Part shown: one piece after another, positions 1 through 17,178 of the stretch | How positions within the stretch are numbered: the stretch's first letter is position 1 | Layout: each line of letters opens with the position of its first letter | From: Methanoculleus sp. 7T | Lineage (GTDB): Archaea > Halobacteriota > Methanomicrobia > Methanomicrobiales > Methanoculleaceae | Length of the DNA stretch: 24,000 nucleotides | NCBI RefSeq assembly: GCF_023195915.1 | Contig: NZ_JALPRP010000001.1 | Coordinates: 1,928,797 to 1,952,796 of the forward strand | Reading direction: 5' to 3' | Position numbers and translations under genes: made by a program | Notes under the pieces: model-generated | Seen by the model: only the letters and a program-made list of their open reading frames with translations | What the model was told of the DNA's origin: nothing | Database searches by the model: none

Positions 1-3000
1 CACATGACGCTGAAGGAGTGTAACGTTGTCTATATCAATCCAGGGACTACTGGCATTTCCTGAAATAATTCTCTCGGGATGGTGGAAGTACCAACCGTCG
101 TGAGGACCATTATGGGCATAGGTGGCAATAGTTGATATTGATGTTCCTCGTCTTCCAGCGCGTCCTGCTCTTTGCTGATAGTTCTCCCTCATGGGGGGGA
201 CGTTCCTAAGGCTGATAGCAGTCAAAGAACCGATATCAATGCCAACTTCCATCGTTGTTGTACAACTCAATACATCAATAGGAAGTTCGTCATCTAACAG
301 TAGATTCTGGAACCGCATCTCGTAACTTTCTGTTGTGGACCAAATATCATCTCGCTGATCTTTGTAAGATAGTTGTGCTGTGTGTTCTTCGGTATTAATG
401 GTACGGATCGATTTGCCCGATCCCTCTGTAATTGCACCAAGGACTGGATCTCTCCAGAATTTGTATCGTTCAAGATCTCCATCATTCATCTCGTAGACAT
501 CAACCGAACCGCAATGTGCACATTTCTCGAACAGAGTATACGGGAAAATGCCTGAACAAGTTCTACAACGATGCCACTTGTGTTCATCTTCGGTTTTTAA
601 TGTAATTTTATCTAATATAAGGTAATATCTGCTCTCTTCCTCTCCGCTTCCGCGACTAAGGAATGTTTCGGAAAGTATGGATGCAATCCAGTTAATCTGT
701 TCCTGAGTATACCTTTCTATCAGGATTTTTTTAAATTTTGGTGGTAGTTTCTGCAGGTCTTTCTCTTGTATACCAAATCTAGTAAACTTACGGAGGGCAA
801 TATTGAACCGTATTTGATCCGAGATCTGGTTTCCAATAGCAAATGAGTTCGTACAGTGATAGTGAGCCCATGCCGCGAAAAGGGCAATGAATTCCTCTTC
901 GGACATCTTGATGCCATGTTCGTAAAACGAGTCAAGACAGTCTCGAATGTCGTCCTTTTCGCAAGGTTCCATCCAACCCAGTCCAAGATCGGTCAATGAC
1001 CTAAAAGGCGAGCAAAGGTTCTTTAGGAGTTGTTCTGAAAAAAGTCCTGGCTTATTCTTGAAATCACGTGTAATTCTATCATACTTGAGTGGTTTGTTCC
1101 GTTTTCCTGCTTTTTCAATGATGACCTTGATGGTTTCTAGATCTTCATTAAAGCGTTCCTTATCCCCCCCATAAAACAGGCGCAAATGATTGTAGTACGC
1201 TATCTCTAAGAATGCGGGATAAAGCATATCAAGTGTGGCACTCTCCCCTGTTTCCTCAGCCCATTGCTGTAAACGGGCAGCCGCTAGAACTAAAACCGCC
1301 CTTGCAGCCTGATCATCTGCTGTCCTTGTCATATCTTTAGCGAGTACTGCGGCCCTTTGTCTACTGTCAGAAAAGATGAGGACTTTTCTCCCAGCATTTG
1401 GTTGTCGCTTAAGTTTTTCCTCATCAAAGAGTATAGGAGGTTGGACAGATAATTGTGAAGAAACAATGTTGTAAAATGGTTCATTTCCCTTTGTAGAAAA
1501 GTCAGAAAACGAGTAACTACTTAACTGTTTTTCACATTTGGGACAATAGTAAAATGTTAATTGCTCTGGTTTCCCTTTTACTGGTTTAAGAGAATAACAG
1601 ACCTGTAAGAATCCACTCTCCCCAGCATGAATGTTGTCGAAATGGATGAACCCGGTCTTTGCATCTAGCCACCCCAAGCGGATATTTTTTTTATTTATGG
1701 GATGGTTCTTTGGATTCTGTGGGATGATATATAGATGCACTTCCTTTAACTCTTTTCCAAATATTTCCCCTGGTGTTTGCCATAAATATTTTTTATCCTC
1801 GAAATTTTCCGCATTAAGCAAGTATCCTTTAAGAAACAGGGCTCCGCATCTTCTATCATTGATTAACTCATAGATTCTCGCACCACAATGGGGACAGATG
1901 TCTTGTTCACTATCTGAGTAAATTTTACCAAGAGCGACTCCATCTCCAGTGTGTTTTTGGGGGCAATTGGGATTTGTACAGGTGTACAGTCCCTGCAGAC
2001 CACGGAAAAACATGTGCAGTCTAGCATGAAAAAGAACCTGTCTGTCTTTTTTGGCAAGTGGTAAAAGCGATAGAAGAACTTGTGTTGCAGCGAATGCGGT
2101 TTCAAAATCATCGTTTGGAAAAGCGATTACTGCGAGTTTTGTAATTTCGGTAGCGTTTCCTGCGGTTTGATTCATTATCCGCTGTACAGGTCCATATTTT
2201 GGCAATGTTTCAAATAGCCATTCTTTCAGTTCTTCAATCGTAGTATATGGGGGTCTGACCCCGTCAAGTTCTTGGAAGAACCCCTGTATTGCCAGGACTT
2301 TTTTCGCATCATCAAGTTGAAAGTCAGCCAGAGGCAGAGCACTTATCTGTTTCGCTGAGAACTCTATAGGATTCTGGGAATTAATCTTTCTGTTTGCTCC
2401 GGCAATTATCGAGAATGTATCTTTCTCACCTGAGGTAAGCTTCCTTAGAAATTCTTTTAGCTTGCTATTTGTTTCCTCACTGTCAATAGGAATACTGGCA
2501 CTGGTGAGGATGAACCGTACCTTATCACGTGTTATTCCTAATTTGTACATCAACCGGCGAATAAGGAGAGCAACCTCTCCCCCGGCGGACCCACGGTACA
2601 TGTGCGCTTCATCAATGACTATTAGGAGTTTGTTTTCTGGCGATTCGTTTAACCAATTCTTGGTGTTTGACCAGAATGGCTGCTCAATCTGTCGAATCAA
2701 CATGTATTGGAGCATTGAATAGTTGGTGACCAGAATGTCAGGACAATGATCTTGCATTTCTTTGCGGGTGATCAATTCCGCATCATGTGTATTTGGTTGA
2801 TGGACCCCTTTTTTTAGATTTGTAGTATAGGATTCTAGGTTCCATTTTGAAGGATACTTCCCAAGCGATTTGAGTTCCTCAATAAATCCTGGGCTACGGT
2901 TGATTAGGTCACGTTCCAGTGTTTTTGCCAGTTTTATATTCTTATCTTTTACAGGCTCACCCGGGTACGGCGTTCTACCTGTATACATCCCAAATTGGGG

Positions 3001-3576
3001 AATCCGTATGCTTGCATCGCAGGCATATTCTTTAAAAAGTTTATGGTATTCTCCACTGTAATCTCCAATCAGTTTCCGCAGACGACCAATCTGATCTGCG
3101 ACCAATGCATTCATGGGGTAGAGTAACAACGCTCTGACACCCCGTTTACTCCAAGTATCTGGACGTGTTTTTGCCTCAACCGCAAGGTTTGCAACAAGAG
3201 GCCACATGAAGCACTCAGTCTTTCCAGAACCCGTGCCTGTAGTCACTAAAATATCCTTTCCTTGATAAAAATCCTCAAGCGCTTTAATCTGGTGGCTATA
3301 GGGGTCTTTGAAAACCCCTAACTTCCTTTCACACATTTGGTGGAGGAATTGTTTGATATTTTCTGGGATGTTTGCATCAGCTAATCCATTGTTTAAGGCT
3401 AAGTACGTTTGGTTTGACTCGATGCAGGGATTTTTGTAAATGGAGTTATCTTCATCCAAGATCTCTTTCGATGCGTTCAAAAGAAGATCATTCTCGCCAA
3501 AGTATTGCGCCTGAATGTAGTCCTTTAGTTTTCCGACAAGCTCGCTGTGTATATGCTGAACACTGTATTCAGACAT
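1..3576 (-). CDS. Large SF2 DEAH-box helicase with Cys4 zinc-ribbon insertions; partial, C-terminus lies beyond the window edge
   Basis: My own translation of the minus strand from ATG 3576..3574 stays open for 1192 codons to nt 1. The ORF is not in the supplied track because it runs off the edge. Helicase motifs occur in order in one frame: motif I/Walker A TTGTGSGKTE (nt ~3217-3243), Ia LYPMNALVADQ, II VIDEAHMYRG (DEAH nt ~2602-2613), III LTSAS, IV-like KVLIFSDSRQRA (nt ~1357-1383), V SCTTTMEVGIDIG, VI QRAGRAGRRG (nt ~145-177). Cys4 clusters are CTNPNC...CPHCG (nt ~1879-1980) and CRTCS...CAHCG (nt ~505-567). An SD-like GGTGGTG sits just upstream of the ATG. The ATG overlaps the upstream gene's stop (ATGTCTGA). 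Confidence 0.85.
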   Translation of the reverse strand, partial: MSEYSVQHIHSELVGKLKDYIQAQYFGENDLLLNASKEILDEDNSIYKNPCIESNQTYLALNNGLADANIPENIKQFLHQMCERKLGVFKDPYSHQIKALEDFYQGKDILVTTGTGSGKTECFMWPLVANLAVEAKTRPDTWSKRGVRALLLYPMNALVADQIGRLRKLIGDYSGEYHKLFKEYACDASIRIPQFGMYTGRTPYPGEPVKDKNIKLAKTLERDLINRSPGFIEELKSLGKYPSKWNLESYTTNLKKGVHQPNTHDAELITRKEMQDHCPDILVTNYSMLQYMLIRQIEQPFWSNTKNWLNESPENKLLIVIDEAHMYRGSAGGEVALLIRRLMYKLGITRDKVRFILTSASIPIDSEETNSKLKEFLRKLTSGEKDTFSIIAGANRKINSQNPIEFSAKQISALPLADFQLDDAKKVLAIQGFFQELDGVRPPYTTIEELKEWLFETLPKYGPVQRIMNQTAGNATEITKLAVIAFPNDDFETAFAATQVLLSLLPLAKKDRQVLFHARLHMFFRGLQGLYTCTNPNCPQKHTGDGVALGKIYSDSEQDICPHCGARIYELINDRRCGALFLKGYLLNAENFEDKKYLWQTPGEIFGKELKEVHLYIIPQNPKNHPINKKNIRLGWLDAKTGFIHFDNIHAGESGFLQVCYSLKPVKGKPEQLTFYYCPKCEKQLSSYSFSDFSTKGNEPFYNIVSSQLSVQPPILFDEEKLKRQPNAGRKVLIFSDSRQRAAVLAKDMTRTADDQAARAVLVLAAARLQQWAEETGESATLDMLYPAFLEIAYYNHLRLFYGGDKERFNEDLETIKVIIEKAGKRNKPLKYDRITRDFKNKPGLFSEQLLKNLCSPFRSLTDLGLGWMEPCEKDDIRDCLDSFYEHGIKMSEEEFIALFAAWAHYHCTNSFAIGNQISDQIRFNIALRKFTRFGIQEKDLQKLPPKFKKILIERYTQEQINWIASILSETFLSRGSGEEESRYYLILDKITLKTEDEHKWHRCRTCSGIFPYTLFEKCAHCGSVDVYEMNDGDLERYKFWRDPVLGAITEGSGKSIRTINTEEHTAQLSYKDQRDDIWSTTESYEMRFQNLLLDDELPIDVLSCTTTMEVGIDIGSLTAISLRNVPPMRENYQQRAGRAGRRGTSISTIATYAHNGPHDGWYFHHPERIISGNASSPWIDIDNVTLLQRHV

Positions 3577-4609
3577 CTTGCACCACCTGAATGTTCAGAT
3601 TCTTTAGTATATTTGTAATAATTGGAAGGAATACTGGCAACGTAATGAATTCTGTTCTGTCCAAAATATTTCGAATGGGCCAAGCTACCATATAAAACAG
3701 CATTTCCTCTCTCCCTGGGAGGGCAGAGTGTAGTTTGATTTTGATGGCATCCCTGTAAGTTGTTATTATGGCTCGTTCTGGATTATGATTCAGATATCGA
3801 AAGCCATACATGAACCTACGGACCTCTTGCAACTTTACAATGTGATCTGGAAATGCATGAGTATATGTCATTCCATTTTCCTGTTTAGCAAATCCGTAAT
3901 CATCACGGTTATTTCGATACACTGTTGCTTTCCATGGGTGGCAAAGCGATTTGTCCCATGACTCGGAGAAAACTCGCCTTGAAAGCGGGTCAAAATACCT
4001 TCGAGCGTCGGATATCGTAGTGTTTGGTGTATATTCACTTCTAGCAAACTTGCTATATTTGAGAACAATTGTTTTTGCATCAGTTTGTGGTATCAAAAAG
4101 AGTTCTTCGATCGGATAGGTATCAGATTCTGAAATCCCGTCGACGTACCACCCCAGACCATATGTCTTTCCCTCTCTTCCAAATGATGTCCCACGCAGTA
4201 GATATAAGTTATTGGTAATTTTCGCGTATTTGTCGGGCGGCAACTGAATGGTGTTATCTGGCCCCGAAACTAGAAATCCAGAGAACTCCAACCTCTCTTG
4301 AATTATTTTGGCTGGTTGGATACCCTGTTTCTCCGGAGGGTAAAACCATCTCCTTACGTTCGGGTAGAGATCTAAATAGGTTGAAAGAATAATATTGCAT
4401 TTTCTGGTCACATGGTGTCTTGTGTACGGTGCATATCTTGGATCCTGAGAATCACTTTCAATCTCAAGGTTTCTATCCAATACTGCTGTTTTGGTCCACT
4501 CTGATATGGCAGAGTAGAGTATTCGAGCAATGTACGCATTTTCATCTTCACAAAAAAAACGGGTTATCCCCAGCCCCTGTGCTATGATTTCGTGGGGATC
4601 CGGTCCCAT
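3569..4609 (-). CDS. Hypothetical protein, third gene of the low-GC cassette; no motif I recognise
   Basis: Long ORF in the supplied track (3569..4627, 352 aa), but the track start at 4627 is TTG. The first ATG is at 4609, preceded by GGAGG (4625..4621) at SD distance and lying 5 nt after the upstream stop. That gives about 346 aa beginning MGPDPHEIIAQGLG. Composition and coupling match its neighbours. Confidence 0.75.
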   Translation of the reverse strand: MGPDPHEIIAQGLGITRFFCEDENAYIARILYSAISEWTKTAVLDRNLEIESDSQDPRYAPYTRHHVTRKCNIILSTYLDLYPNVRRWFYPPEKQGIQPAKIIQERLEFSGFLVSGPDNTIQLPPDKYAKITNNLYLLRGTSFGREGKTYGLGWYVDGISESDTYPIEELFLIPQTDAKTIVLKYSKFARSEYTPNTTISDARRYFDPLSRRVFSESWDKSLCHPWKATVYRNNRDDYGFAKQENGMTYTHAFPDHIVKLQEVRRFMYGFRYLNHNPERAIITTYRDAIKIKLHSALPGREEMLFYMVAWPIRNILDRTEFITLPVFLPIITNILKNLNIQVVQDV

Positions 4610-4613
4610 AAAG

Positions 4614-7109
4614 TTATTCTCCTCCAAGAAGTTTGTCTACGATCTTTTTGAGATCGTCTCTGTCAAGATATTCCAACCCTTGATTCAACTCATCTATAGT
4701 TCCAAGTAATTTGCAGTAGGTTGCAAGTTCGAGAAGTATTATAGTCTCCACATTTTTCCCATCATTTGTTGCAACCGTGGATACTATCGCAGTTCTGGTT
4801 AGATTGTATCCATTTGTTGCATTTACCGCCCGTGATAACTTAAAGATCTTCTGATAAATACTCTTAATATTCCCTTGTTTTTCAACGGGTGCAACGATGG
4901 TACAATATCCAGGGTTCAAGTCTTCAGTTTCAACGGAGGTGATTACATCATCGGAGTTCATGAAAGCCACATATCCAAGCAAACTTGGTGGGAGTATTCG
5001 CATAGTTTCTGCGAAATCGAGTGAATACAGGATGTATTTTTCTGGGTTTTTGTCGGCCATATCCTTTGCAAGGTGCGCATAGCAGTATTCATCGATGGAT
5101 CCGATGACGTTTTGAAGAAGAACTACGTTTCCAGAGGCAGTTTTTACAGTATTTATCAGTGAAGAATAGTCGGTGTAACCTGTAGGAACAGAGATTATTT
5201 CGGGTGTTTGTGAGCAGAGTGTAACTGAGATGGCCTTGGCCATGAGACTTACATTACACCCTGCAAGAAGTAGTGGAGTTCTCGTCAGATATGCCCCTGC
5301 AATAAATTCAGCAAGAATTTCAGCATATTCTTGGTCAACTCCTATGTTCTGCAGGTTTTCCTTTAGATCATAAATTAAATCCTTGAGATCTGTAATCTCG
5401 AGAGGATCTGCTCCATAGTCTTCTGCTGGTCGTATCAATAGACCTGAATTTGATACTGATGCAATACTTGCCTTTTCAGACTCCCTAGTTGGCATCAACC
5501 CTTTGAATAGTGCCAGATCACCGAGGACTCTCCCTGGGTTATGTTGTATATCCTTGAATCTCTGCTCACAATAGGACTTTAATTGGTCATTGATTGCTTC
5601 TAAAGTTCGCTTATCCCTCTCAAGTTGTGCTAACTCTTCCCGAATGCGTTGCCGATCTGCGATGTCTTTCTCCAGTTGCTCTCTGGACGCCTTCAATATC
5701 GCTATATCATTCTGGAGCCTATTAGATTCCTCACGTAGTGATTGAAGTTCGTTCAGGATTATATTTTGTTGTTCGAGGCGGAACTGCTCGCTCTCTTTAG
5801 CAATAGCCTGTAATCGTTCCTTTTTGAATACGGCAATTTCCTCAACAGCGATATTTTTTTGTTCTTTCTCAAACGCCTTGAGTTCCTGCTGGATACGTTT
5901 CTCATGGTCCTGTCTTATCCGCTCGCTCTCAGATTCAACAGTTTTTTTGAGCGATTTCAATGCATCAGTCTCAGCTGTTCTCTCTGCCGCTATTGCAAGA
6001 ATTTCACCCTTAATATCCTCGATACGATCTTCTAGATCAGCAATTTCTGCTTCTAAAGATTCTTTTTGCTCAAACAAGCCCTGATTGGCTATGTGACGTA
6101 TCTTATTAATGTATTCTTCATTGATCTTTGGTATGTGGTCAATAACACCTCTTACAAATCCTTCAACCTTATCGTCGGTATCGAGATATGAATTTATTAT
6201 TTCTATTTGTGAATCTAACCATTGCTTATTCTCTGGAGACAACGCTAATGCCGGTTGTCCCTTTGGACTTGATAGTGCTTCGATCAGGATATTTTTCATC
6301 AGTCTTTTTTCGTCCTCGGAGTAGCTTAGGCGAGTGGCAATTCGGTCAAAATACTTCGCGAGAACGGCTGAATCTGTGTGAAGTTCCAGAGTGTCTAATT
6401 TATCCTGTGGTGCAATTCTCATTTTTTGGTAGATGAGTCGTCGAGTCAGGTTTGTGTGATTCTCAGACAATAAGGTTTTATATTGCGGATCAAAGGAGTC
6501 AATAACATCTTCCTTCTTGATTTTACATCGAACCAGTGGCTTTTTATCAGTTACAAAAAGCAACTGGTCGTCACGCAGACAGGATGCTGCTTTCGTTATC
6601 TCGATACAGAAATAGAACTCTTCATCGTAATCATAAACCACAAGAAGGTTTTCTGAAAAAGTGTCTGGTACAACAATGCCTTTTTCCAATATGTGCACGA
6701 GCTCATCATCTGAGCCTATCGCAAATCTCAAGTTGCCTGGGGATTCGGAAGAGAGTTTAGAGTTCTCCAAGAAGATCAATTCGTAATAATTGTATTTGCA
6801 GTGAGGAGGTTTAGGGAGACTTAAAAAGGGGATTACGTTATACTCATCTGGAGTAGCACTTTCTTTCCATGTCCAGATACCTATGGTGTCATGCTCAAAG
6901 TGGATGGAGTTATTCTCCTTCCTAACTGGCAGGAGCATGGGTCCCCCATCTGGCTTTGTGTAGATTATGCCTACGGTGTTTACTCTACTTTTTGTCCAGT
7001 CTGTCGTGGAAATATCTGCGATCCTTAAGATTTTGATCTCTTGCTCGCTAAACCTCACTGGAATTCCTATGCAACATCGCAAGTTGGGGAATTTTTTTGG
7101 GCTTATCAT
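4614..7109 (-). CDS. 831-aa protein with a central coiled-coil of about 170 aa; second gene of the cassette; function unknown
   Basis: Uninterrupted 831-aa ORF. Its ATG overlaps the upstream stop (TAATG at 7107..7111), with AGGAG upstream. Residues ~345-516 (nt ~5560-6075) are E/K/Q/L/R/I-rich and heptad-like (EAEIADLEDRIEDIKGEILAI...LQNDIAILKASREQLEKDIADRQRIREELAQLERDKRTLEAINDQLK). The C-terminal part contains a strand-loop-helix resembling a P-loop but lacking GK[ST] (TPLLLAGCNVSLMAKAISV). Confidence 0.85.
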   Translation of the reverse strand: MISPKKFPNLRCCIGIPVRFSEQEIKILRIADISTTDWTKSRVNTVGIIYTKPDGGPMLLPVRKENNSIHFEHDTIGIWTWKESATPDEYNVIPFLSLPKPPHCKYNYYELIFLENSKLSSESPGNLRFAIGSDDELVHILEKGIVVPDTFSENLLVVYDYDEEFYFCIEITKAASCLRDDQLLFVTDKKPLVRCKIKKEDVIDSFDPQYKTLLSENHTNLTRRLIYQKMRIAPQDKLDTLELHTDSAVLAKYFDRIATRLSYSEDEKRLMKNILIEALSSPKGQPALALSPENKQWLDSQIEIINSYLDTDDKVEGFVRGVIDHIPKINEEYINKIRHIANQGLFEQKESLEAEIADLEDRIEDIKGEILAIAAERTAETDALKSLKKTVESESERIRQDHEKRIQQELKAFEKEQKNIAVEEIAVFKKERLQAIAKESEQFRLEQQNIILNELQSLREESNRLQNDIAILKASREQLEKDIADRQRIREELAQLERDKRTLEAINDQLKSYCEQRFKDIQHNPGRVLGDLALFKGLMPTRESEKASIASVSNSGLLIRPAEDYGADPLEITDLKDLIYDLKENLQNIGVDQEYAEILAEFIAGAYLTRTPLLLAGCNVSLMAKAISVTLCSQTPEIISVPTGYTDYSSLINTVKTASGNVVLLQNVIGSIDEYCYAHLAKDMADKNPEKYILYSLDFAETMRILPPSLLGYVAFMNSDDVITSVETEDLNPGYCTIVAPVEKQGNIKSIYQKIFKLSRAVNATNGYNLTRTAIVSTVATNDGKNVETIILLELATYCKLLGTIDELNQGLEYLDRDDLKKIVDKLLGGE

Positions 7110-8722
7110 TACTTTCTAGTCTCCTGATTTAATTCAGATATGAGATGATAGTATGCTCGCCTTGATATTTTTCTGGATATTATCGCTTTTCTGAGATATT
7201 CATCCCTTTTAGGGCAATTTCCGAGATGATTCCGAATATATTTCACTTTCACGGGGGTTGATATAAACATATCTCCTCCCAAAGCGAGTTTCTGATACAT
7301 CATGTCATCGCATTTTATTGAGTCTCTCATTATGGTCCGAATGCGTTTTGGAACACTCACCTGGTAAGTTACATCCATTCCATGGCGTACGCATATCTTG
7401 TCTCCGTCGGAGAGGTTTAAAAATGCATGAATAGTTTGTTCATTCCAGTAAACGCTTTTCAGTTGTTCTTCTGAGTGATGATAAATATTACATTTGCTGT
7501 CTGAGTTAAAAGACAGGGTTATCCTGTCCTTGAGGAGAAAGGAGTCGCCGTTTTCAAGTGGTTTACTATCACACTCCAGTAATATTTCAGGAGGTTTGTA
7601 ATGTGATATCTCATCAGAACACCCGCACATGAGGTGAACCTTACATCCTCCGTTGGAGGTAATATCTGTAGAGTCCTTGATTGAGAGGTCTAGTAACCAT
7701 CCCGTGTTAATCCGAATCTTTGGAATGGGTTTTCTGGACTGCCTTTTTGTTTGCTGATAATAACTAAATCTATCTGCTTTTTGCGCTAGGCTGAGGATGT
7801 GCGTTGGTCTGCTGTACAACTGTCTGTTCCCATGTTGCACATGAGGAGGCCAGAGTGGAATTAATGGAGGGTGCCACTCGATAAGTTTGACCCTGAGATT
7901 ATTTGCAAACTCCTGAGCGTTTTCTGTGACCTTGATAAATTGTATTCGATAGATCCGCCACTCAGATTCATATCCGAAGGATTTCCCCTCCAGTGTTCCT
8001 AATGGTTCATATTCGAGAAAATCTTCAGTGTGATCTGGTATTTTAGAGGCTGTCGCCAGATAATAATACTTATCTGTCGTTATCTCTGCGTTTTCTGAGA
8101 TACCACGAGCATAAGTATTACTGCTGTATCTAAACAATGCCCCTTCTTCTGGGAGTCCCGCTTGATATTCCCTCCAGCTTTTAATAATACCCTGATTAAC
8201 CGAACATTCACTGTATTTAAGGGAGTAATAATCGCATATCCACTTCAATTGAATATATGTGCTCTCCCCCGCGACTACTTGACTCATAAGGAGTCTATTT
8301 TCTTTGAGCTCTGCATTATTTGGATTGATAATTTGTACTATGAGGTTTTCGTTTCTAGCAGATGCAACGATCTTTTCTTCTAATGGGGAAAAGCCAAGAA
8401 AGAGTCCAAAGGTCTCTCCCCCCTTTAAAATGTAGATATTTTTTGAACGTTGGCCTGACTTGCGCTCCTCCTGCTGTCTCTGATACATGGCCGCATATCT
8501 ATTATCCGAATAATGGTTGGGGCAATCTTGGGTTTTGGGATTATTTGGAAGGTGTCTAAAGTAGGTTCTCTCATCCCCATTTACTAGCCTAACCGGTTCT
8601 CTGCACTCTGGGCAAATAAAATTGGCACTTTTGAAAAAATGAAAGTAAGGGTCATTTGCAAGGGCTCTTGCATAAACCAACTCTTTACATCCGGAAGATC
8701 TCTTCCTGATTGCGTAATCCAC
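7109..8722 (-). CDS. 537-aa protein with an N-terminal CoiA-like zinc finger; first long gene of the cassette; function unknown
   Basis: Uninterrupted ORF with a GTG start at 8722, preceded by AAGAGGGG (SD-like). Residues 35-71 read FICPECREPVRLVNGDERTYFRHLPNNPKTQDCPNHY. This fits the CxxC-(x13)-[YH]F.H-...-C pattern I associate with the N-terminus of CoiA-like competence/nuclease family proteins. The rest has no motif I recognise. Confidence 0.85.
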   Translation of the reverse strand: MDYAIRKRSSGCKELVYARALANDPYFHFFKSANFICPECREPVRLVNGDERTYFRHLPNNPKTQDCPNHYSDNRYAAMYQRQQEERKSGQRSKNIYILKGGETFGLFLGFSPLEEKIVASARNENLIVQIINPNNAELKENRLLMSQVVAGESTYIQLKWICDYYSLKYSECSVNQGIIKSWREYQAGLPEEGALFRYSSNTYARGISENAEITTDKYYYLATASKIPDHTEDFLEYEPLGTLEGKSFGYESEWRIYRIQFIKVTENAQEFANNLRVKLIEWHPPLIPLWPPHVQHGNRQLYSRPTHILSLAQKADRFSYYQQTKRQSRKPIPKIRINTGWLLDLSIKDSTDITSNGGCKVHLMCGCSDEISHYKPPEILLECDSKPLENGDSFLLKDRITLSFNSDSKCNIYHHSEEQLKSVYWNEQTIHAFLNLSDGDKICVRHGMDVTYQVSVPKRIRTIMRDSIKCDDMMYQKLALGGDMFISTPVKVKYIRNHLGNCPKRDEYLRKAIISRKISRRAYYHLISELNQETRK

Positions 8723-8739
8723 TGAAACCCCTCTTTAAA

Positions 8740-8907
8740 TCAATGATATGTTCTTTCAGTTAAGATAATCTCGTCGAATTGTTCATGTAGGCGATCTGTG
8801 AGAACAAACTCATCCTGTGCTTTGTCATAGGGTGTTTCCGGCAAGCTTATCCCACCTTCAGGCGATCTCGCTGTATGACGCTCTCCTCCGACATCCCAAA
8901 AGGCCAT
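8740..8907 (-). CDS. Possible 55-aa ORF spanning the GC/AT compositional junction (speculative)
   Basis: Hand translation gives MAFWDVGGERHTARSPEGGISLPETPYDKAQDEFVLTDRLHEQFDEIILTERTYH, with its stop at 8742..8740. That is 17 nt upstream of the GTG of the 537-aa gene. The ORF is below the 60-aa cutoff of the supplied track. Its 5' half is GC-rich and its 3' half AT-rich. There is no recognisable motif. Confidence 0.2.
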   Translation of the reverse strand: MAFWDVGGERHTARSPEGGISLPETPYDKAQDEFVLTDRLHEQFDEIILTERTYH

Positions 8908-8983
8908 CGTATCGCACCACTGCTCTACGAAGCGTTCAGGACTACCGGCAACGTCCCGTTGTCCTGAAGGAGATGAGCCCCGC

Positions 8984-9478
8984 TCACCGGCTCACCAGCG
9001 CAGGCAGCCGCCCGTTGTGCGCCTCTTGGTATCTCTCCTTCAGGGCTTCCTCGGCAGTTCCCGGATGATCGTCGACGACCATCCACCCGTACTGCAGTTC
9101 CCACCCGGATGAGAGGAGCGCCCATAGAGGGTACTGAGCAGTATGGCGGGTTGCAAATTCCAGGTATCGGGCGTGGAGGGTGTTCTTGCTCCCGGGGTGT
9201 GTCCCTGCCGACCCAATGTAGATCGTCAGGCAGTCGTCGATCGCCAGGAGTCGGTCAAGCCGGCTGCGAAGAAACCGGCCTGCCACGTCCCAGCCAATTG
9301 ACCTGGCCAGACCGACGGCCTTCTCGTGGACCTCTCCTACTGGAGTTCCGCGTCGGTGAATCCGGATGACGTAAACCCCTTTCCGCTTCGGTGGTTCTGC
9401 GTCCTGAAACCGCGTGAACTCAAACTTGTCGAAGAGGCCGTTGCAGCAGCCGCCTTCCAGCGAAGATCCTTTCATCAT
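8984..9478 (-). CDS. GIY-YIG-like nuclease domain protein (tentative)
   Basis: 164-aa ORF starting 10 nt downstream of the PLD gene stop, so probably co-transcribed. It contains KGVYVIRI (GIY-like), TIYIGSAG (YIG-like), LHARYLEF (conserved Arg region) and C-terminal AEEALKERYQEAHNGRLPAL (Glu-containing helix). The spacing between the GIY and YIG elements is longer than canonical, so the family call is tentative. Confidence 0.6.
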   Translation of the reverse strand: MMKGSSLEGGCCNGLFDKFEFTRFQDAEPPKRKGVYVIRIHRRGTPVGEVHEKAVGLARSIGWDVAGRFLRSRLDRLLAIDDCLTIYIGSAGTHPGSKNTLHARYLEFATRHTAQYPLWALLSSGWELQYGWMVVDDHPGTAEEALKERYQEAHNGRLPALVSR

Positions 9479-9488
9479 AGTCTAGCCG

Positions 9489-10259
9489 TTACCGATAGTA
9501 GGTCTTGTAGCAGTCATCGCAGATTGGCCGGGTCTTTGTTGTCGCATGTTTGGTCCCGCACTTGTGACAGACCTTCTCCTTGTAATCTGGGTTGTTGAAG
9601 CGGGTCCAGGAAGCAAAGCACTTCGGACAGTACGGCTTCTCCGGGTTATAATCGATCGTCGCTCCGCACCGGATGCAGTACGCAGCCTCCCCCAGCACCG
9701 TGTCCAGCGCCTTCTCGAAGAACCCTTTCTTTGGAGGGGCTTTCAGCTTCGGCGATATGGTCCTGATGGGTTTTCTCGGTTCATAGGTCCGTTGATTCAC
9801 GTTGGCCGCCGCAGCCGTCTGGTTGTTGCTCTCCGGGCTGCTTGCTTGCAAGATCCTTTCAACTTCTTCAAGCGTCTGGGTGTAGAGGACCGGATCGGTC
9901 TCCCGGAAAAACCGGACACCCATCTCCCAGTTGTTGCTCTGCGAGTGCTCGTAAAGGTTCATCGAGGTGATTATGCCGAACTGCTCGTTGATGTAGCATT
10001 TGGCGTGGAGGTCGTTGCACTTGTAGAGTTGAGCGCTCTGCAATTGTTTGAGAAACGCCAGGTCCTCCGGATTGGGGTTCGTGTCGCTCCGGTAGACGAT
10101 GTCGATGGGGACCTTTTTGTCGTCAATGCTCTGGAGGTATTTCCTGTTGTGCGGGGTCAGGCTGATGTAGGGAGAGATGATGAAGATTTGCTCCTCTGCG
10201 TTCTTGATGATCTCGATGAACGCTGCACTTACCCCCAATGCGTCGAGAAAATCTGCCAT
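9489..10259 (-). CDS. PLD/HKD-family (Nuc-like) nuclease domain protein with C-terminal tandem zinc ribbons
   Basis: 256-aa ORF with an ATG at 10259 and AGGAG upstream. It has a single HKD-type motif, LHAKCYINEQFGIITSMNL (HxKx4E...TSxN). The C-terminus has CIRCG...CPKC and CHKCG...CDDC pairs. The 238-aa plus-strand ORF 9546..10262 is its antisense shadow. Confidence 0.85.
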   Translation of the reverse strand: MADFLDALGVSAAFIEIIKNAEEQIFIISPYISLTPHNRKYLQSIDDKKVPIDIVYRSDTNPNPEDLAFLKQLQSAQLYKCNDLHAKCYINEQFGIITSMNLYEHSQSNNWEMGVRFFRETDPVLYTQTLEEVERILQASSPESNNQTAAAANVNQRTYEPRKPIRTISPKLKAPPKKGFFEKALDTVLGEAAYCIRCGATIDYNPEKPYCPKCFASWTRFNNPDYKEKVCHKCGTKHATTKTRPICDDCYKTYYR

Positions 10260-10497
10260 TAGATTGCTCCTAATGGTATACTATACGGTGGGGCGGCGAA
10301 AAAGATTCTTATACGCCCCCTTTGCTCAGGATCACTGGTATGGAGCCGTTTTGCTGGAAATTCAACCGAACGGAGAGTGGAACGCTGACATAAAGTATTT
10401 GGTGATCGAGAAGAAATTTTCAATCAAGAATAGAAGGGCACAGCGGAGTTATACTGAGAGTTGGGCAGTACCGCGAGGGCGGTGAAACAGGGAGCCT
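10260..10497. promoter_or_regulatory. Divergent intergenic region between the PLD operon (-) and the NERD gene (+), with TATA-like elements
   Basis: A 238-nt gap between divergent starts. TATA-like strings are tatactata (10277..10285) and tcttatac (10307..10314). I cannot place transcription starts by eye. Confidence 0.3.
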
Positions 10498-11493
10498 ATG
10501 GTCATAATACATGGAGTATCCGGAAGTACGAAGTACCTGCTGAATGGGCTGAAATCTGTTGGTGGAGGAAGTCTGGGGACCTTTGAAGATATTCACCACT
10601 TTTACAACAACTATACCGGAATCCTGGCCGAGACCGAAGCCGCGGTAAATGCTCAACTGGATGAGAGGATAGCCGGTCTGGGCGACGCTGAGGTCCAGTT
10701 TGATGCCCAGATTCGGGAGGGCATTGCCCGGCGGACTGCAGAAATTGATGCAGAGATCGCCGAACTCAAGACGAAGATTGCCAACGCAACGAATATTCTG
10801 ACACGGTGGGGCTATACAGTCAAATGTTGGATTGCGGTCTCTCTACGGTCCCGGAGCATATCCCGCCCCTCCAGTGGCCTGAAGTCGGAACTACGCGGCG
10901 TTCAAAACGAGAGAGCGATGCTGATCCGGAAGAGGCCGGAACTTGTCAACAAAGGGTGCAGCAACATCATTGCGAACCATGCATTCATAGCCGATAATCT
11001 GTTGTTCTATATCGGTGCCATCGGGGAGGAAACGGTCATCGCCGCCCTCTCCCGGATCTCCGACGAGTACCACCTGTTCAATGACGTGAACCTGCGTTTC
11101 CATCCTCCTATCCACTGGAGAGAGATGAATGACTACATCAAGTCGAGCCAGATCGATCACATCGTCGTAGGGCCGACGGGTCTCTTCGTCGTGGAGACGA
11201 AGAACTGGAAGTTCTCAGACATTGAGAAGAAATCTGACAAACTGGTCTACCAGGTGAGACGATCAAGCCTGGCGCTCTGGTACTACCTGCGGAAGAACTA
11301 TGCACGAAATGACGTGCCGAAGACCCGCAATGTCGTCGTCTCGGTGCAGGGCTGCCGTCCCGGTCAGAAACTGGACTCCCACATCGATATCACCACCCCC
11401 AACAGGCTCTGTGAATACATAACGAAAAGAACGAACACCCTGCCGGCAGATGCGGTCGATCGGTTGGTTGCCGTGATTGGCCGGATCGCATGA
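10498..11493 (+). CDS. NERD (nuclease-related domain) protein with an N-terminal coiled-coil region
   Basis: 331-aa ORF with GGGAG upstream of the ATG. The C-terminal half matches the NERD pattern: GAIGEETVIAALSRISDEYHLFNDVNLRF...SSQIDHIVVGPTGLFVVETKNWKF. The N-terminal ~100 aa are A/E/I-rich and helical (AETEAAVNAQLDERIAGLGDAEVQFDAQIREGIARRTAEIDAEIAELKTKIANA). Confidence 0.85.
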   Translation: MVIIHGVSGSTKYLLNGLKSVGGGSLGTFEDIHHFYNNYTGILAETEAAVNAQLDERIAGLGDAEVQFDAQIREGIARRTAEIDAEIAELKTKIANATNILTRWGYTVKCWIAVSLRSRSISRPSSGLKSELRGVQNERAMLIRKRPELVNKGCSNIIANHAFIADNLLFYIGAIGEETVIAALSRISDEYHLFNDVNLRFHPPIHWREMNDYIKSSQIDHIVVGPTGLFVVETKNWKFSDIEKKSDKLVYQVRRSSLALWYYLRKNYARNDVPKTRNVVVSVQGCRPGQKLDSHIDITTPNRLCEYITKRTNTLPADAVDRLVAVIGRIA

Positions 11494-12216: not shown

Positions 12217-12734
12217 TTATACAGCCTTCTCGACCCTCTCCTTCAGCCCGGACGCGAACGCCTCCATCGAGTCCAGGTCTTTGAACCCGGCGAAGATAAC
12301 CTTCCCTGACGAGAATACGAGAGCGGTCCCTGCCTCGCCCCGGTAGATCAGGCCCGGGAACTGCTCGGGCTCGTACTCGACCTGCTCCATCCTGAGCGCG
12401 ACGACGAGTCGTGATAGTGGGACTTCTATCTGGAAGTCATCCATGCCGACGACATTCCGGATTTCCGGCGCCGTTGCGAGTGAAGGATCAATGATGGGTA
12501 AGTTTAGGGTGAGGAACTCCTGATAGGACTTATCAACATCGTCAAGGGACGTAAGGCCGTAGATGATGTACTTCCCGCTCCGGTAGATGGTTGGCCTTCC
12601 CCTGGAGAGGAGGATGTAGGCCCCGTGGTAGATCTTAGGGTCATACTTATAGGTAGACTCGAGAGCTCCGGCAACCGCTCAAATGGGATCGGCTGGTGGA
12701 GGTCGCCGGAAGCAACGATGTTGATGATCTTCAT
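12217..12734 (-). pseudogene. tbp: TATA-box-binding protein (TBP) paralogue interrupted by a 1-nt frameshift
   Basis: The second TBP repeat is intact in ORF 12217..12444 and its upstream extension: VEYEPEQFPGLIYRGEAGTALVFSSGKVIFAGFKDLD. The first repeat starts at ATG 12734 (MKIINIVASGDLHQPIPFE) but is in a different frame. The two frames join near nt 12675-12680, and the downstream frame has a TGA immediately upstream of the junction. The span is 518 nt, which is not a multiple of 3. Adding one nt would give about 173 aa with two TBP-like repeats. Confidence 0.7.
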
Positions 12735-13214
12735 TCCCAAATATGAACGGGACCCCGGCAAGACCTTCTTCTGGCGGGACGGGATGCTGAAGTAACCTAC
12801 CTCACCCCTGCCCAGCACCCGCACGATCACCGCCACCACCCCGCCGGCCCCGGCGCTCACCGTCGATAACCTCCGCTCCTCTCCCACTTCCTCCGCCCGA
12901 GAGCCGCTCCGGCGCCCAGCAACATGGTCCCGGAAGACCGGGCTCCCGGGTGGTCTTCTCGTTGGTCATCCCCGTAACCTTCCCTGAGGACAGCAGAATG
13001 GGGAAGAGACAAATCCTGCCCGTGAGGGCTATGCCGGGGGATCCGGGCCTCCCGGAGAAATGCCCCGCGATCAGCCTCGACGATGCCGGCGTGACGGAGG
13101 ACGGCGGGTGCGGGGTCACGGTCCGCCGCCGGGAGCAGTACTTCATGTTCGACCGTGAGGTCTACCGGACCTGGAGCAGGGGTACTTCCGTCTGGCTGGA
13201 CGGACGACCCGACG

Positions 13215-13296
13215 ATGACAGCAATGACAGCAGTTTTCAGCAGAATGACAGCAACTGCTGTCATTCTGCTGTCAACGTGCTGTCACATGCTGTCAT
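13215..13296. repeat. Array of seven TGACAGCA 8-mers (3 forward, 4 reverse) centred on a perfect 16-bp inverted repeat
   Basis: ATGACAGCA occurs at 13215, 13224 and 13245. Its complement TGCTGTCA occurs at 13256, 13267, 13278 and 13288. Spacings are 9, 21 | 11, 11, 10 bp. The arms cagcagaatgacagca (13238..13253) and tgctgtcattctgctg (13256..13271) are exact reverse complements separated by 2 nt. Confidence 0.8.
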
Positions 13297-13767
13297 TCTC
13301 CACCACCGGTCGACCCCCCGACTCCATCCCCTCCCGGTGGCAAAGGACGGGCCCGGGCCCGCGTCTGCGGCCGGCGGCCGACACCCTCCGTGAAACGGGG
13401 CGGCCTCCGTTACAACCGCCTTGCGAAGGCGAAGCGGCCCGGGAAAGTGCAACCCCTCTCCCCGGCGTGCTCGACCGCCGGGAGTTTTCCCGGATAAAGG
13501 CCGAACTCGGCCGGTGCGACGCGGGGAGAAAATGGCGGTCTACCGCTCGCGGGAGGCGCAGGCGAAGGTCTGCGATCAGTGCTGCGCCCGGGAGTGGAAC
13601 GGGCGGGCGGAGAGGGTCGTGTACGCATGACCTGCCGGATAAGGAACGGCGGGTGTCCGGGCATCGAAGGTGGGAAGCAGAAACGCAGTGAGCACCGGAG
13701 GTGCGAAGGAAGACGGATGGCACAGAAAGAGTATAACGGATACTTCCTCATTGTTGAGAGAAAAGCA

Positions 13768-14517
13768 ATGACCCGAAACCTTCGTGCGATTCTGTGCCTC
13801 CTCATACTGCTCTCGGCGGCTGCATCCCCGGCAACCGCCGGGGATGTCACGTCCGAGACGTCGATGAAACTCTCGATCACCTCCCCAAAGCAGTATGATA
13901 CGATATGGAGCGATCTCGCCCCGCCCCGCGCCGAGGTCGCCGGCAGGGCCGAAGCCTCGAATGGGATACGGGACGTGGTTGTCGCGAGCGGCGCCGGGGA
14001 GGTGTCATGCGGGAACGGGACCGAGTTTGCCTGCTCCGTCCCGGTCACGGAGGGGAACGAGACGATCACCGTGACCCTGATCGATAACCTGGGAAAAACT
14101 TCGGACGCGGTCCTGAACGTCTACGTCAACGTCGACGTCCCCCCGCCGCCCCGGATCTCTGCGATCGGGACGGTGAGGGACAGCGACGGCCGTCCGGTCC
14201 CGGGCGCGGCGGTGAGGTTTGAGTCCGTCCTCCCATTGAACGGCGCACCGTATCCCCTGGCGACCGAGACCGCCGGTGATGGAAGCTACCTGATAGAGAA
14301 CGCGTTTGGCTACGGGCAGACCGTCTCGGTCGAGAAGGACGGCTACCTCCCCCTGCACCGGGTGGTCGTCTTTGAGGAGACCGTCAACAGGCTCGACTTG
14401 GAACTGGAGCCGGAGCCGCAGGGGAGGGCGGTTCCCGGGTTCTCCGCCTGGATTGGCGTGCTTGCGCTCTCGGGAGGACTGCTCGCCGCCCGTGTGGCGA
14501 GGAGGCGGAGGGGGTGA
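13768..14517 (+). CDS. Secreted surface protein with a carboxypeptidase-regulatory-like domain and a PGF-CTERM archaeosortase sorting signal
   Basis: The track ORF starts at 13579. ATG 13768 gives a classic signal peptide (MTRNLRAILCLLILLSAAASPATAGD), with TATA-like gagtataa 33 nt upstream. A CarboxypepD_reg-like segment reads GTVRDSDGRPVPGAAVRFES...GDGSYLIENA...VSVEKDGYLP. The C-terminus PGFSAWIGVLALSGGLLAARVARRRRG has PGF, a TM helix and a basic tail. Confidence 0.85.
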   Translation: MTRNLRAILCLLILLSAAASPATAGDVTSETSMKLSITSPKQYDTIWSDLAPPRAEVAGRAEASNGIRDVVVASGAGEVSCGNGTEFACSVPVTEGNETITVTLIDNLGKTSDAVLNVYVNVDVPPPPRISAIGTVRDSDGRPVPGAAVRFESVLPLNGAPYPLATETAGDGSYLIENAFGYGQTVSVEKDGYLPLHRVVVFEETVNRLDLELEPEPQGRAVPGFSAWIGVLALSGGLLAARVARRRRG

Positions 14518-14660
14518 AGCGAGGATGAGGACCCGCCCGCTCACCCTTTCGCTCGTCGTCACGGCCGCGGCATCGAGTTGAGGCTGAAGAAGGATCCGCT
14601 CCTGCAGTAGGGCCTGAATCCCGGGAGATTTAAACTCAGATAAGCATTGTATCATCTACC

Positions 14661-14667
14661 TTTTTTT
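14661..14667 (+). terminator. T7 run downstream of the PGF-CTERM gene (possible terminator)
   Basis: ttttttt lies about 145 nt after the stop codon in an otherwise GC-rich spacer. This is weak evidence. Confidence 0.2.
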
Positions 14668-14923
14668 CCTCTGAGGACCCAAGTGTCTTTCCAGGGGATC
14701 CTATACCTTTTCGCGTTCGGACTCTGCAAATCCTGTCTGAATAACAGATCCCGGCATTACCGGGCCTGAGCAACTCGCAACACCCCGCAGGACGCAATCC
14801 CGGTCATGAAGGAGATGCCGAACCGGCGATATACCATGGACCCGCCTCCGGCGAGTGAAGGACCGGATCGAAGGCGGTGACAATCTCTTCTCTCTTCCGC
14901 AGATGATGGTCCACGAAAACACT

Positions 14924-14931
14924 GATATATT
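14924..14931 (+). promoter_or_regulatory. TATA-like box upstream of the 228-aa secreted-protein gene
   Basis: gatatatt is centred about 33 nt upstream of ATG 14961, in a GC-rich background. Confidence 0.3.
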
Positions 14932-14960
14932 GGGATACTAATAGCGCTCGAGGTCGAGCA

Positions 14961-15647
14961 ATGAGAGCATCGATAAGATTGCTGGCAGGCTGCCTGCTGA
15001 TGCTGCTGCTGGCATGTCAGGCTTCCGCCATGGCTCCGCCCGCATGGGTGCAACCCGGAACGACAGTGACGTATCAAGCCGCATTAACCCCATACTACGG
15101 TATCGATCCCGACGATCCGATGGAGCGGTGGGTGCATTACGAAGGGACCGGAGTATACGGCTACCTGACCGATACGGTCACCGGCGGGGACGCACAGAGC
15201 GGTTATTCCGGCGACTCGGTGGTGATCAGCGGCATCGATGGAAACATCCTGTATCAGGGCACATGGTCGTATCAACCCGGAGACCCGGGTATCGGGCTGG
15301 TGCCGTTCTGGGTCGACCTCGATAATCCCGCATTCGACCAGCAGTTCCTGGTCCTCGAGGGCCCGCTGGAACTTGCCGGGCAGCAGTGGAATGCGCAGGT
15401 CTATTACTACGCAAACCTCGGGACCAGCTTCGATATCCGCTACGTCGTCGATAACGACAGCGGTCTCGTTTTAGTCAAGAATGCGGGACTGACCGGCGCC
15501 AACAACCAGATGCAGAGGGAGATCTACATACTGCAGTCGGTCGAGACCGGATACCCTGGGAGTGGCAGACCGGAGAACACTACCCGCGAGGTGGTCGAGG
15601 GCGCCCGGAGTGCAGGAGAGGTCTGGCGATCGAGGATGTCCTCATAA
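14961..15647 (+). CDS. Secreted hypothetical protein (signal peptide, Y/G/D-rich beta-type sequence)
   Basis: 228-aa ORF with an N-terminal signal peptide (MRASIRLLAGCLLMLLLACQASAMAPP). The third codon position is strongly G/C, as in neighbouring host genes. I recognise no family motif. Confidence 0.75.
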   Translation: MRASIRLLAGCLLMLLLACQASAMAPPAWVQPGTTVTYQAALTPYYGIDPDDPMERWVHYEGTGVYGYLTDTVTGGDAQSGYSGDSVVISGIDGNILYQGTWSYQPGDPGIGLVPFWVDLDNPAFDQQFLVLEGPLELAGQQWNAQVYYYANLGTSFDIRYVVDNDSGLVLVKNAGLTGANNQMQREIYILQSVETGYPGSGRPENTTREVVEGARSAGEVWRSRMSS

Positions 15648-15991
15648 TCAGGAACGAGGACTTGGGGCACAACCCCGATCTCAGGGGCGAGGCGCCGTTA
15701 TACGGTGTTCTTCGGGGCGGCTCGCAGTACGGCCCAAGTCTCCGCAAACGTGCGTAAGAGTGCCCCGATACCTACGGTTCTTCAATCACCGGATACTGTT
15801 TGGATCTGTTCCTGACTGCCGACCCATTCCCTCCGGCACATTACCCGGGACGAGCGGGCCGTCGCCACGGGGTCGTTCAGCCCCGGTGCAACAGCCGGTA
15901 TCGGCTTTAGATCCCGTGCATAGGCCGCTCCTTGCGCCCGTCCGGACAGTCGCGGATCCGACACCCGGGCAAAGGAGGGAACCCGACGTTC

Positions 15992-16270
15992 CTACTGTGC
16001 AAGGATCTTCTGCTTCTCCTGCTGGAACTCTTCCTCGGTCAGGGCCCCCATCTGCTTCAGTTCCGCCAGTTGCTTGAGTTGAGCCAGTTTCTGCTCCTGG
16101 GTCATGCCCGACTGGGCGGATGCGGGGGATGCCTGTTGCGACTGCGCCTCCTTCTGCATCTCTCTCTGTTGCATTCGCTTGTTGACCGCTCGGGATGTCG
16201 CGGTGGCCGTTCCGGCGACCACCGCCGTGCGAGCCACGGTGCCGATAAGGCCCGGTCGACCGCCTCTCAT
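15992..16270 (-). CDS. SHOCT-domain protein
   Basis: 92-aa ORF with GGAGGAGG 6 nt upstream of the ATG. The C-terminus KLAQLKQLAELKQMGALTEEEFQQEKQKILAQ matches the short C-terminal (SHOCT) domain pattern. Confidence 0.75.
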   Translation of the reverse strand: MRGGRPGLIGTVARTAVVAGTATATSRAVNKRMQQREMQKEAQSQQASPASAQSGMTQEQKLAQLKQLAELKQMGALTEEEFQQEKQKILAQ

Positions 16271-16300
16271 GATACGCCTCCTCCGATGTTCATACTTCTA

Positions 16301-16756: not shown

Positions 16757-17178
16757 AGCGCGCCTCCGGAGCAGGATGCCGGTCCAACTATATAACCCAG
16801 ACTGCTGCACGGTATACCAACTGTTTCCATCGGCGTTTGGGTTCGAAGAGGCGATAAAACGCCGCTTGGGCCCCCTGAGGTCCAACTCTCCGGCAGACCG
16901 ATGATACTTGAGACGTCGGGAGAAGGATGACGTCAGGACCGGTGCCCGGCCCGGCAGGGAGCGATCCCGTACGAAGAGACGCAGGGTTTAAATACCGGAA
17001 TTGCATCAGAACTCGATGTCATCTCCGGCTGGTTTCTGCATGGGTCATCATCCGGCGGCATTCCATTCGCCCCTGCGATAGGCTACGTCCTCACTCCTCA
17101 AGGCCCGAACCACGGCATTCTCGCGGAAATGCGATACCTAACCGCCGGAGCACGGATCCGATCTGAGAGGTATCCCCT

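Follow-up and report, generated by a model that had tools for sequence, protein, structure and literature searches.

A predicted type I Druantia helicase, DruE, in a compositionally foreign druBCDE cassette of Methanoculleus sp. 7T

Mechanistic descriptions of the closest relatives of the protein studied here come from MrfA and from the DruE helicase of type III Druantia (10.64898/2026.05.12.722862, 10.64898/2026.05.13.724313, and PMC12458937). MrfA is a DNA helicase of 3'-to-5' polarity, and its OB-CON-MZB canopy holds the tracking strand in a clamp. Type III DruE unwinds DNA in the 3'-to-5' direction from junctions of single-stranded DNA (ssDNA) and double-stranded DNA and acts on phage replication intermediates. 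Druantia types I and II, by contrast, are stated in the literature to remain uncharacterized. In canonical type I systems the first gene is druA (DUF4338), and Ojima et al. associated the type I Druantia of Escherichia coli with an N6-methyladenine (m6A) mark on host DNA, for which the responsible gene is not known. Here, we analyzed a stretch of 24,000 nucleotides (nt) from Methanoculleus sp. 7T (the window; positions and strands below are window coordinates unless stated otherwise). Our reading, to which we assign a probability of about 0.92, is that positions 3576 to 1 encode the N-terminal 1,192 of the 1,780 amino acids (aa) of a type I DruE and that this gene is the last in a foreign druBCDE cassette.

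An earlier note on this DNA had claimed that an open reading frame (ORF) missing from the ORF listing runs from 3576 to position 1 and is the largest gene in the window. Translation bore this out. The minus-strand frame contains 1,192 sense codons and no stop, and the remaining five frames of positions 1 to 3576 contain 47 to 95 stops apiece. At the local base composition, where a stop is expected about every 16 codons, an open run of this length has a chance probability of about 9e-34. The gene starts with the ATG at 3576, overlaps the stop of the upstream gene druD by 8 nt, and was omitted by the ORF lister because the frame leaves the window at position 1. No other coding stretch of the window reaches its 3,576 nt (the runner-up has 2,805 nt), and the two minus-strand ORFs nested within the gene (720-986 and 1863-2111) are both out of frame, as the note had said of the short listed ORFs.

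1..3576, minus strand: druE, codons 1-1192 of 1780, cut by the window edge (open frame, PADLOC DruE1 match, prefix of the L081 and P0001 proteins)

The rest of the gene was obtained from an assembly contig of 16.4 kb (L081), which was retrieved by an exact-protein look-up with DruC. This contig is identical to the window at 13,119 of 13,119 overlapping bases and reaches 3,270 bases beyond window position 1. The complete druE on L081 encodes 1,780 aa, of which the window fragment is the exact prefix. The fragment is also an exact prefix of its best database match, P0001, a protein of 1,780 aa (100% identity) titled 'DEAD/DEAH box helicase [Methanoculleus sp. 7T]'.

The family of the protein was assigned by profile searches. 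The fragment matched PADLOC DruE1 with 1,437 bits (E=0) over profile positions 3-1175 of 1776, from which about 600 residues were predicted to be missing. The complete protein scored 1,932 bits, with residues 2-1771 aligned to profile positions 3-1774 of 1776. With the same model, the DruE of the canonical Pseudomonas putida plasmid druABCDE system scored 2,332 bits and a haloarchaeal plasmid DruE scored 1,569 bits. The models of the other Druantia types gave 376 to 635 bits with the complete protein (DruE2 was best, at 635; DruE3 reached at most 583), about one-third of the DruE1 score, and the DpdJ and DrmA models gave at most 80 bits. Pfam reported only generic DEAD and Helicase_C domains in the fragment, whereas DEAD, Helicase_C, and MZB all exceeded their cut-offs in the complete protein. 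The MZB (DUF1998) Cys4 domain spans residues 1576-1656 (E=7.8e-11; 43 bits versus a gathering score of 24.2), and Pfam detected no PLD domain in the 589-aa C-terminal part. A sequence search of the PDB returned the DruE-type chains 9tu7 (1e-77) and 9wae (2e-69) as solved relatives, followed by MrfA (6znp; 8.9e-17). Features of the MrfA/YprA family are present, namely the superfamily 2 (SF2) core, the MZB domain, and three collinear blocks aligned to 6znp. By these profile matches and alignments, the protein is the DruE of a type I Druantia system, a YprA/MrfA-family SF2 helicase. The earlier note had placed it among defense helicases of the DruE/DrmA/MrfA clade and had expected a DUF1998/MZB domain beyond the window; the profile scores narrow the assignment to type I DruE, with DruE1 far above DrmA, and the domain was found once the ORF was completed.

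The helicase motifs and the inserted domains were located by motif search, by alignment, and with AlphaFold2 (AF2) models. Conservation was counted in an alignment of 79 full-length homologues, of which at least 90% keep motifs I to VI. SF2 motifs I, II (DEAH), III, IV, V, and VI are all intact in DruE. From the N terminus, the features within the window are as follows.

3217..3237, minus strand: Walker A/motif I, GTGSGKT, aa 114-120 (motif search; invariant in the 79 homologues)
2779..3048, minus strand: insertion in RecA1 of about 89 aa, aa 177-266 (alignment anchors to MrfA and 9tu7)
2602..2613, minus strand: motif II, DEAH, aa 322-325 (motif search, homologue alignment)
2494..2502, minus strand: motif III, SAS, aa 359-361 (motif search, homologue alignment)
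2056..2493, minus strand: insertion A part 1, predicted all-helical, aa 362-507 (AF2 model; aligns to 9tu7)
1507..1989, minus strand: insertion A part 2, predicted all-beta, with two Zn clusters, aa 530-690 (AF2 model; aligns to 9tu7 and 9wae)
1357..1374, minus strand: motif IV, FSDSRQ, aa 735-740, a RecA2 core strand (motif search, homologue alignment)
283..1254, minus strand: insertion B in RecA2, predicted helical with a Cys4 knuckle, aa 775-1098 (AF2 model; partial alignment to 9wae)
511..567, minus strand: Cys4 zinc knuckle C1004/C1007/C1019/C1022 (99-100% conserved; aligned to the CxxC...CxxC of 9wae)
142..282, minus strand: RecA2 motifs V-VI, aa 1099-1145 (Pfam Helicase_C at 1100-1144; aligns to MrfA 352-437), with motif VI, QQRAGRAGR, at aa 1135-1142

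Measured from the MrfA anchors, RecA1 of DruE is longer by about 89 residues, and about 618 more are inserted between motifs III and V. The latter figure is close to the two insertions of roughly 370 aa described in the earlier note, whose coordinates for Walker A, DEAH, the motif IV-like strand, motif VI, and both Cys4 clusters were accurate. Its account of the insertions was nevertheless incomplete, since it overlooked the RecA1 insertion, which has no counterpart in MrfA and is far shorter in the type III DruE 9tu7. Its placing of a Cys4 ribbon in each insertion held for the clusters at 533-566 and 1004-1024 but left out a third window cluster, C577/C678/C681, the three cysteines identified for a putative Zn site of insertion A part 2. 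Across the 79 homologues, DruE contains six invariant Cys clusters. Three fall in the window (533/538/561/564, 577/678/681, and 1004/1007/1019/1022) and three lie beyond it (1387/1392/1405/1408, 1492/1495/1530, and 1644/1648/1652/1655, the last in the MZB domain).

The structure prediction that the note had proposed for the insertions was carried out on alignments of 49 sequences. The model of aa 362-730, in which the all-beta domain with the first Cys clusters occupies aa 530-673, reached a predicted local distance difference test score (pLDDT) of 81.8, and that of aa 775-1098 reached a pLDDT of 84.5 and a predicted template modeling score of 0.84. According to Bell et al. (PMC12458937), Druantia DruE contains a helical domain that resembles BrxA, and its RecA2 carries two insertions, a beta-barrel module that binds zinc and a MarR-like domain with a further zinc module; a helix-turn-helix (HTH) insertion in RecA1 occurs in type I DruE only. 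In their terms, the helical part of insertion A is 'BrxA-like' and insertion B is 'MarR-like + ZBM' (zinc-binding module). A Foldseek search of both insertion models gave no significant match in a PDB library reaching to April 2026 and seemingly without the DruE cryo-electron microscopy entries, and it neither confirmed nor improved the 'BrxA-like' and 'MarR-like' labels. At the sequence level the insertions do align to type III DruE chains (9tu7 267-781; 9wae 518-860 and 989-1178, including the Cys4 knuckle). Since both insertions align to type III DruE and match the published layout, the expansion is, on this alignment evidence, ancestral to DruE, the norm of the family and not peculiar to this gene. 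The words 'highly expanded' of the note thus hold relative to MrfA, but the architecture is ordinary for DruE.

The earlier note treated druE alone and overlooked its place as the last gene of a four-gene operon. Three genes lie immediately upstream on the same strand.

3569..4609, minus strand: druD, 346 aa from the ATG at 4609 (PADLOC DruD1, 2.3e-28; L081 gene call)
4614..7109, minus strand: druC, 831 aa, with a central coiled coil (PADLOC DruC1, 4.8e-11; otherwise only coiled-coil matches in PDB and NCBIfam)
7109..8722, minus strand: druB, 537 aa, GTG start, with an N-terminal Zn ribbon (PADLOC DruB1, 6e-4, marginal; position conserved in 50+ loci)

The ORF listing gives an alternative druD start, a TTG at 4627. 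The Zn ribbon of DruB has four invariant residues, C37, C40, H57, and C67, and the orthologue of DruB in Methanosarcina mazei matches PADLOC DruB1 at 1.8e-7. The druB stop and the druC ATG overlap by 1 nt (ATGA-type), druC and druD are separated by 4 nt, and druD overlaps druE as described above. This overlapping and abutting arrangement, with a B-C-D-E gene order that is kept in 50+ loci, indicates that druBCDE (8722..1) forms one translationally coupled operon.

DruB, DruC, and DruD gave no Pfam or NCBIfam family match above threshold. Profiles built from 20-21 sequences found nothing among PDB sequences beyond coiled-coil noise for DruC and a generic Zn ribbon for DruB, and no nuclease or known fold was found in DruB, DruC, or DruD in the profile searches. 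An inactivated McrB-like homologue of CnuB, which Bell et al. (PMC12458937) report for Druantia types I and II, could not be confirmed here. In 80 related loci, DruC falls into length classes of about 650-720 aa, about 895-936 aa, and, in Methanoculleus, Methanogenium, and Methanofollis, 831-835 aa; these classes suggest a variable domain that is inserted or lost around the coiled coil.

The base composition of the cassette sets it apart from its surroundings. The cassette measures about 10.5 kb with a G+C (GC) content of 0.417, and its flanks have 0.53 and 0.62; the change falls at the start of druB and at the stop of druE. The upstream edge was mapped as follows.

8723..9000, no strand: upstream cassette edge, where GC rises from about 41% to 55-60%, with no druA (GC profile, profile scans)

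The cassette is thus compositionally foreign and was horizontally acquired in the Methanoculleus sp. 7T chromosome. No integration scar in the form of a tRNA, an Rfam match, or direct repeats was found flanking it. A TATA-binding protein (TBP) fragment in the window is consistent with an archaeal host.

Close relatives of DruE, with 55-87% identity, occur in Methanocalculus, Methanofollis, Methanogenium, Methanoplanus, Methanosarcina, and Methanorbis. The same four genes stand amid unrelated flanking genes in Methanogenium, M. mazei, and Methanofollis formosanus, and in high-GC methanogen hosts the cassette again has about 40% GC. In a neighbor-joining tree, which carries no support values and is indicative only, methanogen DruE proteins interleave with those of Bacteroidales, and both are sister to a Firmicutes/Fusobacteria group; the whole clade sits on a long branch away from two druA-containing systems. 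Low GC in hosts of 53-62% GC and the interleaving of methanogens and Bacteroidales point to repeated transfer between bacteria and archaea in anaerobic communities. In four methanogen genera (L081, L001, L089, and L091), the cassettes have a GC content of 0.38-0.42 beside host flanks of 0.32-0.62, and DruE differs by 20-45% between these hosts. Such a constant low GC despite divergence implies either that the cassettes have not drifted to the host value or that they were acquired independently.

The gene missing from the canonical type I set is druA. PADLOC and Pfam found no DruA near the cassette in the window, in L081, or in three other methanogen loci (L001, L089, and L091), in scans that covered about 10 kb of flank per side. 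DruA/DUF4338 was also absent among the 25 most frequent families listed for 99 ORFs upstream of druB in related loci. When two diverse DruA proteins were used as tblastn queries in all six frames, neither the window nor any of 85 loci gave a match at E<1e-3; this search is insensitive here, given that canonical DruB and DruC fail in it too, and the conclusion rests mainly on the hidden Markov model scans. Two annotated DruA proteins used as positive controls scored 715 and 492 bits. In many bacterial loci, ORFs of about 400 aa upstream of druB were considered as DruA candidates and rejected, because they encode C5-cytosine methyltransferases that accompany an Eco47II or EcoO109I endonuclease.

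The druA-less four-gene set recurs in 80 related bacterial and archaeal loci, including at least four methanogen genera, and a literature search for druA-less or archaeal Druantia found none described. A tentative proposal, to which we give somewhat less than even odds, is that druBCDE without druA might be a distinct, self-sufficient Druantia subtype that circulates among Clostridia, Bacteroidales, and methanogens and works without the DruA module. If this were true, and if DruA were tied to m6A self-marking, the subtype would have to tell self from invader in some other way. The cue could then be DNA structure, as in type III, or an adjacent restriction-modification (R-M) pair, and the cassette would represent a Druantia system acting against archaeal viruses.

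Such R-M pairs were seen in 14 bacterial loci (L011, L014, L016, L018-L020, L022-L024, L029, L030, L035, and others), where a type II pair, encoded on the druB strand, directly precedes that gene at a distance of about 0-2 kb. Each consists of a C5-cytosine methyltransferase (sometimes with an HTH) and either Eco47II (8 loci) or EcoO109I (6 loci). The association with druB might be functional; the methanogen loci are without such a pair.

Three other explanations of the locus were weighed. The one that survives best, although we consider it quite improbable, is that the cassette is a decaying, nonfunctional remnant of a type I Druantia that lost druA on transfer into the archaeon. The failure to find druA in the window, L081, and related loci would fit this explanation, as would the foreign composition and a neighborhood with a broken TBP gene and scattered nuclease genes. 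A decaying locus is at odds, however, with four intact and tightly coupled ORFs and with the conservation of every catalytic and Zn-binding residue of DruE. It is also at odds with the 80 loci, where the druA-less set stands amid unrelated flanks with DruE identities of 41-87%; recurrence across such a long divergence indicates that the loss of druA predates the clade and is not local decay.

It is still less probable that the genes belong to another YprA-centered defense system, such as Druantia II, III, or IV, ARMADA, DISARM, or Dpd. The secondary matches to DruE2, DruE3, and DruE4 are strong, DpdJ and DrmA match weakly, and 770 nt upstream of druB there is a PLD gene that weakly resembles DrmC. 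The threefold-higher DruE1 score nevertheless covers the whole profile, and the neighbors are DruB, DruC, and DruD, not DruH, DruM/F/G, BrxHII/PglX, or DrmB/D/E. The PLD gene itself lies outside the cassette (GC of 50-55% versus 41%) and is not conserved beside the cassette elsewhere. A housekeeping DNA repair helicase of the MrfA/YprA, Lhr, or Hel308 type, suggested by the SF2 core and MZB domain held in common with MrfA and by an NCBI name of merely 'DEAD/DEAH box helicase', is hardly credible, because the housekeeping NCBIfam models score far under their cut-offs (PRK13767, Lhr-type, 24.5 versus 849 bits; TIGR04121, ligase-associated DEXH, 38.2 versus 850; TIGR03817, 100.9 versus 874), so that the clustering with Lhr/Hel308-type helicases raised in the earlier note did not appear, because the roughly 700 residues in excess of MrfA follow the DruE pattern with DruE1 matched end to end, and because the gene sits with druB, druC, and druD in a foreign low-GC cassette of patchy distribution.

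We therefore return to a type I DruE encoded in a foreign druBCDE cassette, for which a mechanism can be outlined by analogy with MrfA and type III DruE. When a virus or plasmid invades, DruE would load on its DNA where this is single-stranded or forked, use ATP to translocate in the 3'-to-5' direction, and unwind the invader DNA, while the OB-CON-MZB canopy of DruE would clamp the tracking strand. By the same analogy, the Zn-studded inserted domains may serve in DNA recognition, in stabilizing this large protein, or in docking DruB, DruC, or DruD. For type I DruE, Bell et al. (PMC12458937) expect the nuclease-like domain at the C terminus to be inactive, which would leave DNA cleavage, if there is any, to DruB, DruC, DruD, or host factors.

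Several points weigh against this reading. The defining gene of canonical type I, druA, was not found beside the cassette within about 10 kb on each side, and the DruB assignment in the window is marginal by itself (DruB1 E=6e-4). What is said here of polarity, substrate, and effector step is carried over from type III DruE, a protein with only about 25-30% identity, and the type III partners and domains (DruH, PLD domains, and the dimerization subdomain) are absent here. The literature search found no mechanistic dissection of any type I Druantia.

The public annotation of the 1,780-aa protein is only 'DEAD/DEAH box helicase', and its recognition as Druantia adds a predicted defense system to a methanogen genome. 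The family is known, and this archaeal member of it is new and under-annotated; only its layout of four genes without druA is mildly novel. The cassette is possibly a variant of the known Druantia I system. A DruE1 subclade of 80 loci, in several methanogen genera, with druBCDE and no druA found bears on the core gene set of type I, although neither this subclade nor the transfer pattern overturns anything known.

The surroundings of the cassette contain further genes of interest. Three small nuclease-type genes of intermediate GC (50-60%) lie between the cassette and the host genes at 8984-11493, and they look like an older layer of a defense island: an unannotated ORF of 163/164 aa (8984-9478), a PLD-domain protein with a C-terminal double zinc ribbon and weak DrmC/MkoB similarity (9489-10259, the gene 770 nt upstream of druB), and a NERD-domain protein on the opposite strand (10498-11493). 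Beyond the other end, 110 nt 3' of druE on the same strand, L081 encodes a 383-aa HNH_4 endonuclease (L081:14996-16147) with a host-like GC of about 60%, and this gene is not conserved after druE in other methanogen loci. The PLD/double-Zn-ribbon gene and the downstream HNH gene were both considered as the effector of the system and rejected, because both fall beyond the low-GC cassette, and neither is conserved beside it in other loci.

Farther into the flank, the TBP gene appears broken (12217-12444 and 12504-12887, both minus strand). A 75-aa ORF in it matches one TBP repeat (Pfam 5.7e-13), and just upstream of this ORF, in another frame, begins a TBP-like sequence (MKIINIVASGDL...); the gene may be a pseudogene or a split TBP paralogue beside defense genes. 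Positions 12900-16900 have a GC of 60-66% and many long overlapping ORFs on both strands with almost no family matches, the only ones being CarboxypepD_reg (subthreshold) and DUF6325. The host flank then encodes two transporters of the major facilitator superfamily (MFS), a sugar-porter-family member (17179-18585, plus strand) and a DHA2-type MFS efflux pump (19430-20923, minus strand), and a 934-aa MGH1-like/GH63-type glycoside hydrolase (21190-23994, plus strand). Sugar porters are atypical for a hydrogenotrophic methanogen and may relate to compatible-solute turnover.

Among the closest known systems is the druABCDE of Pseudomonas putida pKF715A. The DruE of that plasmid (1,841 aa versus 1,780 here) matches the same profile end to end and has the same order of motifs, Zn clusters, and MZB, and there too druE comes last after druB, druC, and druD. 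The two DruE proteins are nevertheless only 34% identical, druA is present there and not here, and the host here is archaeal. BLAST finds no match between the DruB, DruC, and DruD proteins of pKF715A and those of the cassette. Different PADLOC sub-models are hit, with weak to moderate matches here to PDLC00005/00004, 00007, and 00008 and strong matches of the Pseudomonas proteins to 00005, 00006, and 00009.

Type III DruE (9tu7 and 9wae, from the DruH-DruE systems of E. coli and P. aeruginosa) aligns with the protein here in RecA1, in both insertions with their Zn clusters, in motifs V-VI, and in the OB-MZB region, and the helicase mechanism is presumably common to both. Identity in the aligned blocks is about 25-30%, and the protein here has the extra RecA1 insertion. 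No match to DruH was found among the neighbors in the window and the other methanogen loci, and the type-III-specific dimerization subdomain is reported to be absent from other Druantia types. MrfA/YprA of Bacillus subtilis (6znp), the founding member of the family, has the same SF2 core and C-terminal Cys4 MZB but is a protein of 751 aa that acts in repair, not defense. In addition to the insertions described above, DruE differs from MrfA by insertions in the OB region and by a C-terminal extension.

The other archaeal comparison is with plAArc-T1-2-S of Natrialbaceae and other haloarchaeal plasmids, whose DruE likewise belongs to the DruE1 class (1,569 bits). That system, unlike the cassette here, has a 705-aa DruA, which is divergently transcribed, and only two accessory genes, one with a faint DruD-like region. 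Its DruE is 33% identical to the one here and is encoded on a high-GC plasmid, in a lineage separate from the methanogen clade. With this DruE1-class system of their own, the haloarchaeal plasmids (H2, H3, H5, and H6; L087) represent a second archaeal lineage of type I-like Druantia, independent of that in methanogens.

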